Shown piece after piece: positions 25,296 to 25,798 of a DNA stretch of 64,000 bases. The notes below the pieces were generated by a model. That model saw only the letters and a list, made by a program, of their open reading frames with translations. It had not been told where the DNA came from and did no database searches. The position numbers and the translations under genes are program-made. Positions within the stretch are counted from its first letter, which is position 1; each line of letters begins with the position of its first letter. The DNA comes from Escherichia coli (GTDB lineage: Bacteria > Pseudomonadota > Gammaproteobacteria > Enterobacterales > Enterobacteriaceae): assembly GCF_003018255.1 (NCBI RefSeq), contig NZ_CP027440.1. One strand, written 5' to 3'.

Positions 25296-25475
25296 GATGG
25301 TGGTGGAGGAAGGATTACTCAGCGCTGCGCGCTTCGCCCTTCGGGTCGTTGCCTGCGGCCACGCTCTCTCGCTGGCGCTCGAGTCGAACCCTGGTCGAAG
25401 CTTCTCATCCTTCCCCGCTTGGGCAGAATATTTAATCGCGGATTCGTTTGAGAGTTCACGGACTTTTGAAAGTGA
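25296..25475 (-). repeat. tyrT-distal rtT/tpr-type repeat unit (about 180 bp) starting with a degenerate copy of the tRNA-Tyr 3' end
   Basis: Unit begins tggtggtggaggaaggatt, one mismatch from the tRNA 3' end tggtggtgggggaaggatt; lies transcriptionally downstream of the tRNA array on the minus strand. Confidence 0.55.
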
Positions 25476-25560
25476 TGGTGGTGGGGGAAGGATTCGAACC
25501 TTCGAAGTCGATGACGGCAGATTTACAGTCTGCTCCCTTTGGCCGCTCGGGAACCCCACC
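25476..25560 (-). tRNA. tRNA-Tyr (anticodon GTA), promoter-distal copy of a three-copy tandem array
   Basis: Reverse complement is GGTGGGGTTCCCGAGCGGCCAAAGGGAGCAGACTGTAAATCTGCCGTCATCGACTTCGAAGGTTCGAATCCTTCCCCCACCACCA, the E. coli tRNA-Tyr with encoded CCA. Confidence 0.95.
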
Positions 25561-25594
25561 AGGGGTAATTCAAATTTTGAGGTAATGCTTGAGA

Positions 25595-25679
25595 TGGTGG
25601 TGGGGGAAGGATTCGAACCTTCGAAGTCGATGACGGCAGATTTACAGTCTGCTCCCTTTGGCCGCTCGGGAACCCCACC
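25595..25679 (-). tRNA. tyrV: tRNA-Tyr (anticodon GTA), middle copy
   Basis: Identical 85-nt sequence, 119 bp from the neighbouring copies; symbol assignment among copies is arbitrary. Confidence 0.95.
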
Positions 25680-25713
25680 AGGGGTAATTCAAATTTTGAG
25701 GTAATGCTTGAGA

Positions 25714-25798
25714 TGGTGGTGGGGGAAGGATTCGAACCTTCGAAGTCGATGACGGCAGATTTACAGTCTGCTCCCTTTGGCCGCTCGGGAACCCCACC
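25714..25798 (-). tRNA. tyrT: tRNA-Tyr (anticodon GTA), promoter-proximal copy
   Basis: Identical 85-nt sequence; symbol assignment among copies is arbitrary. Confidence 0.95.

Follow-up and report, generated by a model that had tools for sequence, protein, structure and literature searches.

The tRNA array described here is the chromosomal Escherichia coli tyrT operon, situated between purU and narI. Within the window, by which we mean the whole 64-kb stretch of DNA that was analysed, the minus strand of positions 24700-26300 reads from the end of purU through a promoter, three tRNA genes and one RtT unit to the convergently oriented narI (Table 1). This locus has a match in 5,425 of 5,426 complete E. 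coli genomes, and purU, tRNA-Tyr, the RtT sRNA and narI are the genes annotated under the matches.

Table 1. Features of the tyrT locus in the window, with the corresponding K-12 spacer in the last row
Feature	Position	Strand	Evidence and remarks
purU (formyltetrahydrofolate deformylase), upstream neighbour	25958..26800	-	280-aa ORF; annotated purU in all best E. coli hits
Predicted tyrT promoter: -35 TTTACA, 16-nt spacer, TG-extended -10 TATGAT	25849..25876	-	Consensus scan
5' leader of the precursor transcript	25799..25841	-	Presumed start, placed from the -10 position and the known tyrT precursor
tRNA-Tyr(GTA) copy 1, 85 nt, encoded CCA	25714..25798	-	ARAGORN; Rfam tRNA, 53.4 bits; identical to K-12 tyrT/tyrV
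34-bp spacer 1	25680..25713	-	Exact match to spacer 2 and to the final 34 bp between tyrT and tyrV in K-12
tRNA-Tyr(GTA) copy 2	25595..25679	-	ARAGORN; Rfam; script comparison
34-bp spacer 2	25561..25594	-	Script comparison
tRNA-Tyr(GTA) copy 3	25476..25560	-	ARAGORN; Rfam; script comparison
Single 178-bp RtT unit (rtT/rttR sRNA region)	25298..25475	-	Rfam RF00391; alignment to K-12 units
tpr-like 29-codon ORF within the RtT unit	25319..25408	-	ORF list; K-12 tpr annotated at the equivalent place
19-nt copy of the tRNA 3' end at the close of the RtT unit, with a single C-to-T mismatch	25298..25316	-	Local alignment
narI terminator, GC-rich hairpin with T-run, downstream bound of the locus	25132..25153	+	Terminator scan
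narI (nitrate reductase gamma subunit), convergent downstream neighbour	24436..25113	+	225-aa ORF; annotated narI in hits
tyrT-tyrV spacer of K-12	1030-1238 of the extracted K-12 MG1655 locus	-	RtT unit plus 34 bp

Across the 64-kb window ARAGORN predicts exactly three tRNA genes, all of them tRNA-Tyr with the anticodon gta at position 35, and no tRNA gene besides these. Each copy scores 53.4 bits against the Rfam tRNA model RF00005 (gathering score 29), shows about 11 inserted nt in its variable region in the Rfam alignment, as is the mark of class II tRNAs, and ends in ...CCACCA. By script comparison, the three 85-mers are identical to one another and match K-12 tyrT and tyrV exactly; in MG1655 this 85-mer has two occurrences, one at tyrT and one at tyrV. 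The two 34-bp spacers, which read TCTCAAGCATTACCTCAAAATTTGAATTACCCCT in the sense orientation (an earlier note on this DNA quoted the reverse complement), are likewise identical, and Tandem Repeats Finder (TRF) resolves the array into 2.8 copies of a 119-bp period with 99% matches. Perfect repeats of this length cannot be explained by chance. ARAGORN, Rfam and our script thus bear out, at the same positions, the three identical tRNA-Tyr(GTA) genes that had been read from the letters alone, and the script comparison does the same for the identical spacers between them.

The predicted tyrT promoter matches the consensus at 10 of 12 positions, is identical to the tyrT promoter region of K-12 and is followed, after the -10 element, by a GC-rich discriminator, GCGCCCCGC, which is also identical to that of K-12. 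The transcription start is presumed from the position of the -10 element and from the known tyrT precursor. The leader carries a single SNP relative to K-12 (GGCTAG here, GGCCAG in K-12), one that is shared with the two-copy strain JNE23-011 discussed below. By analogy with the K-12 operon, a single strong sigma-70 promoter would drive synthesis of one precursor containing three tRNA-Tyr(GUA) sequences, 34-nt spacers and one RtT, and the processing of this one transcript should release three mature tRNA-Tyr1 molecules together with the RtT RNA.

Downstream of the third tRNA gene, Rfam detects RtT (RF00391) at 25298-25429 with 125 bits and an E-value of 1e-26 (gathering score 45), and this is its sole RtT hit, with no second unit found. 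The complete 178-bp unit is identical to the distal units of K-12 at 167-169 of 178 positions (94-95%), so the single rtT-type repeat that the earlier note had placed after the array is indeed there. The note also had this unit begin with a copy of the tRNA 3' end, which holds in plus-strand coordinates and is reversed in the direction of transcription, where the unit ends with the copy; these last 19 nt read AATCCTTCCTCCACCACCA. The tpr-like ORF within the unit is intact and differs from K-12 tpr by one Cys-to-Gly change.

Comparison with K-12 (tyrT-tyrV-rttR/tpr, b1231-b1229) reveals the same operon in a different arrangement. Both share the site between purU and narI, the promoter, the leader bar one SNP, the 85-nt tRNA sequence, the 34 bp that immediately precede the downstream tRNA gene and the 178-bp RtT with tpr. 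In MG1655, however, tyrT and tyrV are 209 bp apart and are followed by three distal RtT/178-bp units, whereas the window has three genes with 34-bp gaps and one RtT. The earlier note was therefore right that K-12 carries two copies and several distal repeats, and the copy number does differ, being three in the window and two in MG1655. The 209-bp spacer of K-12 consists of a diverged, 175-bp RtT-like unit followed by exactly the 34 bp found in the window; Rfam recognizes one RtT inside this spacer too, and the unit is about 74% identical to the distal units, its last 19 nt reproducing the tRNA 3' end without a mismatch.

To place the array among its relatives, we surveyed 5,426 complete E. coli genomes with diagnostic queries, setting the E-value cut-offs such that nothing short of one full-length alignment would pass. 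A simpler copy count, requiring at least 80% of the query to be covered, was dropped because overlapping pieces of two-copy genomes join up to 100% coverage. More than half of the 5,426 genomes, namely 2,909 (53.6%), have the direct tRNA-34 bp-tRNA junction, the K-12-type 209-bp spacer occurs in at most 1,919 (35.4%), and a single gene (leader-tRNA-distal RtT) in 196 (3.6%); these junction classes overlap, strain EcPF15 having both the direct 34-bp junction and an RtT-bearing spacer, and about 400 genomes fall outside all three at the thresholds used. In at least 1,228 genomes the last tRNA gene is followed by exactly one RtT. Arrays of three or more short-spaced units were found in 42 genomes (0.77%), by a diagnostic in which the third gene is represented by its first 30 nt, and four or more in two, D10 having four and LR14 five. 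The 42 multi-copy genomes correspond to 45 places (40 genomes with three copies, plus D10 and LR14), and the direct-junction query returned 45 extra places, in independent agreement with the multi-copy count. What is rare in the window is thus only the third copy; neither the 34-bp spacing nor the single RtT is unusual in itself. The possibility, raised with the original observation, that K-12 and most strains might have the same three-copy arrangement does not hold, as this state is uncommon and K-12 is not among the genomes that possess it.

We read out the architecture of 14 sampled loci among the 42. A full-length third gene is present in 13 of them, with two of these 13 arrays holding one copy with a single-base change, while in the remaining locus, that of AREA_C483, the third gene is a tRNA/RtT chimera. 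Plasmid carriage, which 12 places had seemed to indicate, was discarded: the 12 PLSDB records with the tyrT pair are all non-mobilizable, three of them are 4.8-4.9 Mb long, and they look like mislabelled chromosomal sequence.

The closest relative of the window's array is that of strain JNE23-011 (NZ_AP045067.1), a two-copy, 34-bp-spacer, one-RtT allele. It has no mismatch in the 650 bp upstream of the first tRNA gene, the leader SNP included, and is 100% identical over the 323-nt stretch comprising tRNA, RtT and trailer, over which only two complete genomes, both with two copies, reach at least 99% identity. The match to JNE23-011 spans 782 bp of its sequence against a query of 901 bp, a difference of exactly 119 bp. 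Identity is hence complete over upstream region, leader, tRNA, spacer, RtT and trailer, and the JNE23-011 allele differs from the window only in having one 119-bp unit fewer. Moreover, the window array contains no new junction, every one of its junctions being already present in the two-copy form, which is what a homologous duplication would give.

Because its flanks are identical to those of the two-copy JNE23-011, the third copy appears to be a recent duplication. Our main reading, to which we assign a probability of roughly 85%, is that the tyrT operon of the window obtained its third tRNA gene when a two-copy, 34-bp-spacer parent recently gained one 119-bp unit. The extra unit, consisting of one tRNA gene and one spacer, would have been added by unequal exchange or replication slippage between misaligned 85-bp tRNA repeats, although RecA-dependent exchange and slippage cannot be told apart from the sequence. 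We infer the two-copy parent from local identity only, and unequal exchange as the cause from the anatomy of the array and its relatives. The earlier note had pointed to unequal crossing-over as the classical behaviour of this locus, and the junctions, the two-copy relative and the ladder of one to five copies in complete E. coli genomes all lend support to that reading of an event which itself can only be reconstructed.

The multi-copy arrays of other strains suggest that such events recur. Three-copy arrays in RefSeq (such as those of 20Ec-P-124, EC1515, EC974, C5 and NCTC10444), the four-copy array of D10 and the five-copy array of LR14 share with the window spacers of 33-35 bp and usually a single RtT, and differ from it in their leader, spacer and trailer haplotypes, because of which we regard them as independent events. 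Two or three RtT units are present in some multi-copy strains, namely A3176 and 10035210-2. Among the 42 multi-copy genomes, 11 carry the spacer of the window, 26 an A-to-G variant and the remaining five further types, including a 33-bp form, so that at least four spacer haplotypes are represented, on different flanks. Haplotype-specific variants are nearly always common to all the spacers of an array; in each of two sampled arrays, one spacer has a single extra change. The spread of the arrays over several leader, spacer and trailer haplotypes indicates that duplication of the 119-bp unit has happened repeatedly and in situ, presumably via misalignment of the 85-bp tRNA sequences.

Could the third copy instead be an assembly artefact, with two copies (or some other number) present in reality and a perfect 119-bp repeat expanded or miscounted? 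The repeats are indeed perfect, the 357-bp array is longer than a typical short read, and no complete genome has this exact haplotype in three copies, the relatives with identical flanks having two. Yet the usual error of assemblers is to collapse a repeat, not to expand it, and read pairs or a long read of any kind would bridge so short an array. Arrays of three to five copies are moreover present in 42 finished genomes, produced by many laboratories on many platforms, which argues that the state is biologically real; we therefore consider an artefact unlikely. Import of a ready-made three-copy array by recombination, from a lineage that already carried it, seems very improbable to us. It would suit the mosaic character of the region: over the 25 kb at 13001-38000 of the window, identity to complete E. 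coli genomes does not exceed 98.9%, against 100% identity of the tyrT locus to JNE23-011, and by this measure the region reads as a mosaic. The leader SNP and the RtT/trailer haplotype, however, lead at the 99% level to two-copy genomes only, and the three-copy arrays that were sampled all differ from the window in leader or trailer haplotype.

A further reading is that selection has kept the third copy, more tRNA-Tyr1 being advantageous in this lineage, possibly by meeting a translation demand or by offsetting the action of tRNA-Tyr-depleting nucleases, for instance PtuAB, the effector of retron-Eco7. That the state can persist is suggested by a single spacer haplotype shared by 26 of the 42 multi-copy genomes, which were obtained from a variety of hosts and countries. 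In addition, PtuAB of retron-Eco7 depletes tRNA-Tyr and extra tRNA-Tyr rescues the phage (PMC11555353), and duplications raising tRNA gene dosage were reportedly adaptive in Pseudomonas experiments (PMC7661048). Against this stand the low frequency of the multi-copy state, at 0.77%, the roughly fivefold excess of single-copy losses (196 versus 42) and the fact that some extra copies are point-mutated or tRNA/RtT chimeras, which fits neutral turnover, and we have little confidence in selective retention of the window's copy. A broader version, in which the tyrT array is a fast-switching dosage locus whose gains to three to five copies and losses to one are repeatedly selected by pressures on tRNA-Tyr, the window's copy being adaptive, is in our view hardly likely; the selecting pressures would here be, for example, the tRNA-Tyr-depleting effector of retron-Eco7 or anticodon nucleases, and retron-Eco7 as the selective context for extra tRNA-Tyr copies is speculative. 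With one-copy losses outnumbering gains and some extra copies mutated, the data fit neutral or slightly deleterious turnover.

The recent gain of a 119-bp unit that we favour is, mechanistically, an ordinary tandem duplication of the textbook kind, and the three-copy array is a rare allele of a classical, well-understood locus, with an architecture that is already annotated in public genomes. Russell et al. reportedly described, in 1970, duplicate su3 tyrosine-tRNA genes that underwent unequal recombination in phi80 transducing phages. That system involves the same genes and the same gain and loss of tRNA-Tyr copies by misaligned exchange between repeats, but its events took place in the laboratory and were scored genetically, whereas the window holds a natural allele known from its sequence alone. 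The third copy may raise the level of tRNA-Tyr; in K-12, tRNA-Tyr1 abundance is, as far as is known, not simply proportional to gene number, so that a dosage effect is not guaranteed. Should the level of tRNA-Tyr1 follow gene number, E. coli strains would differ in their capacity to decode tyrosine codons. Spontaneous tandem duplication reportedly also changes tRNA gene dosage in Pseudomonas fluorescens SBW25 (PMC7661048, PMC10954465), with the difference that the duplications described there are large-scale and laboratory-selected, while the unit in the window measures 119 bp. No dedicated survey of how tyrT copy number varies in nature came up in our literature searches. With the window, this classical example of a repeated gene being gained and lost acquires a further independent case. 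For annotation and comparative work, it is of consequence that K-12 is atypical at this locus and that most E. coli genomes have the directly spaced pair.

The short spacer extends well beyond this species. When one genome per species was scanned, short-spaced tRNA-Tyr pairs with spacers of 22-37 bp were detected in 49 representatives, including members of Citrobacter, Enterobacter, Kluyvera, Kosakonia and Atlantibacter as well as Salmonella enterica subsp. arizonae and a cryptic Escherichia, and an RtT follows the pair in five of the nine short-spaced loci that were scanned for it. Because such pairs occur across Enterobacteriaceae, the short spacer is evidently ancestral in this family and the K-12 spacer evidently a derived insertion. 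No GTDB species representative has two adjacent matches of the window's exact array. The species representative E. coli SCPM-O-B-8794 contains a two-copy, 34-bp-spacer pair, which is followed only by a truncated RtT start and then by unrelated sequence (10803-10900 of the extracted locus), and Rfam reports no RtT hit at this locus.

A further arrangement is seen in EcPF15, the extracted locus of which reads, at 1446-2303, tRNA-34-tRNA-RtT-34-tRNA-RtT-RtT, the RtT between the tRNA genes being identical to its own first distal unit at 178 of 178 positions. Exchange between the tRNA 3' end and its 19-nt copy at the end of RtT would produce just this structure, and the event in EcPF15, a fresh one, recapitulates the likely origin of the K-12 spacer form. 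Another kind of junction occurs in the tRNA/RtT chimeras at 1749-1901 of the extracted AREA_C483 locus and at about 6949-7100, on the minus strand, of the extracted locus of Citrobacter sp. MGH106, which has three tRNA-Tyr copies in addition to the chimera. Each combines the first 67 nt of tRNA-Tyr with the body of an RtT unit that terminates in the tRNA 3' end, the point of fusion being GGTTCGA; in the PGAP annotation, the AREA_C483 chimera is a tRNA-Tyr of 153 nt. The junction of these chimeras indicates that RtT shares a second homologous block with the tRNA, in the T-arm.

The two altered copies among the sampled arrays are a C10T change in copy 1 of the three-copy array of DSM 103246 (1446-1530 of the extracted locus) and a C29T change in copy 2 of that of strain C5 (1565-1649 of the extracted locus). 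Each would turn a stem pair into a G-U pair, and such single-base changes in extra copies may reflect relaxed constraint. Finally, in CFSAN067215 (1961-3268) and N1420 (2262-3276), two strains with the 33-bp spacer, an acyl-CoA desaturase or IS4 transposase gene takes the place of narI downstream of RtT.
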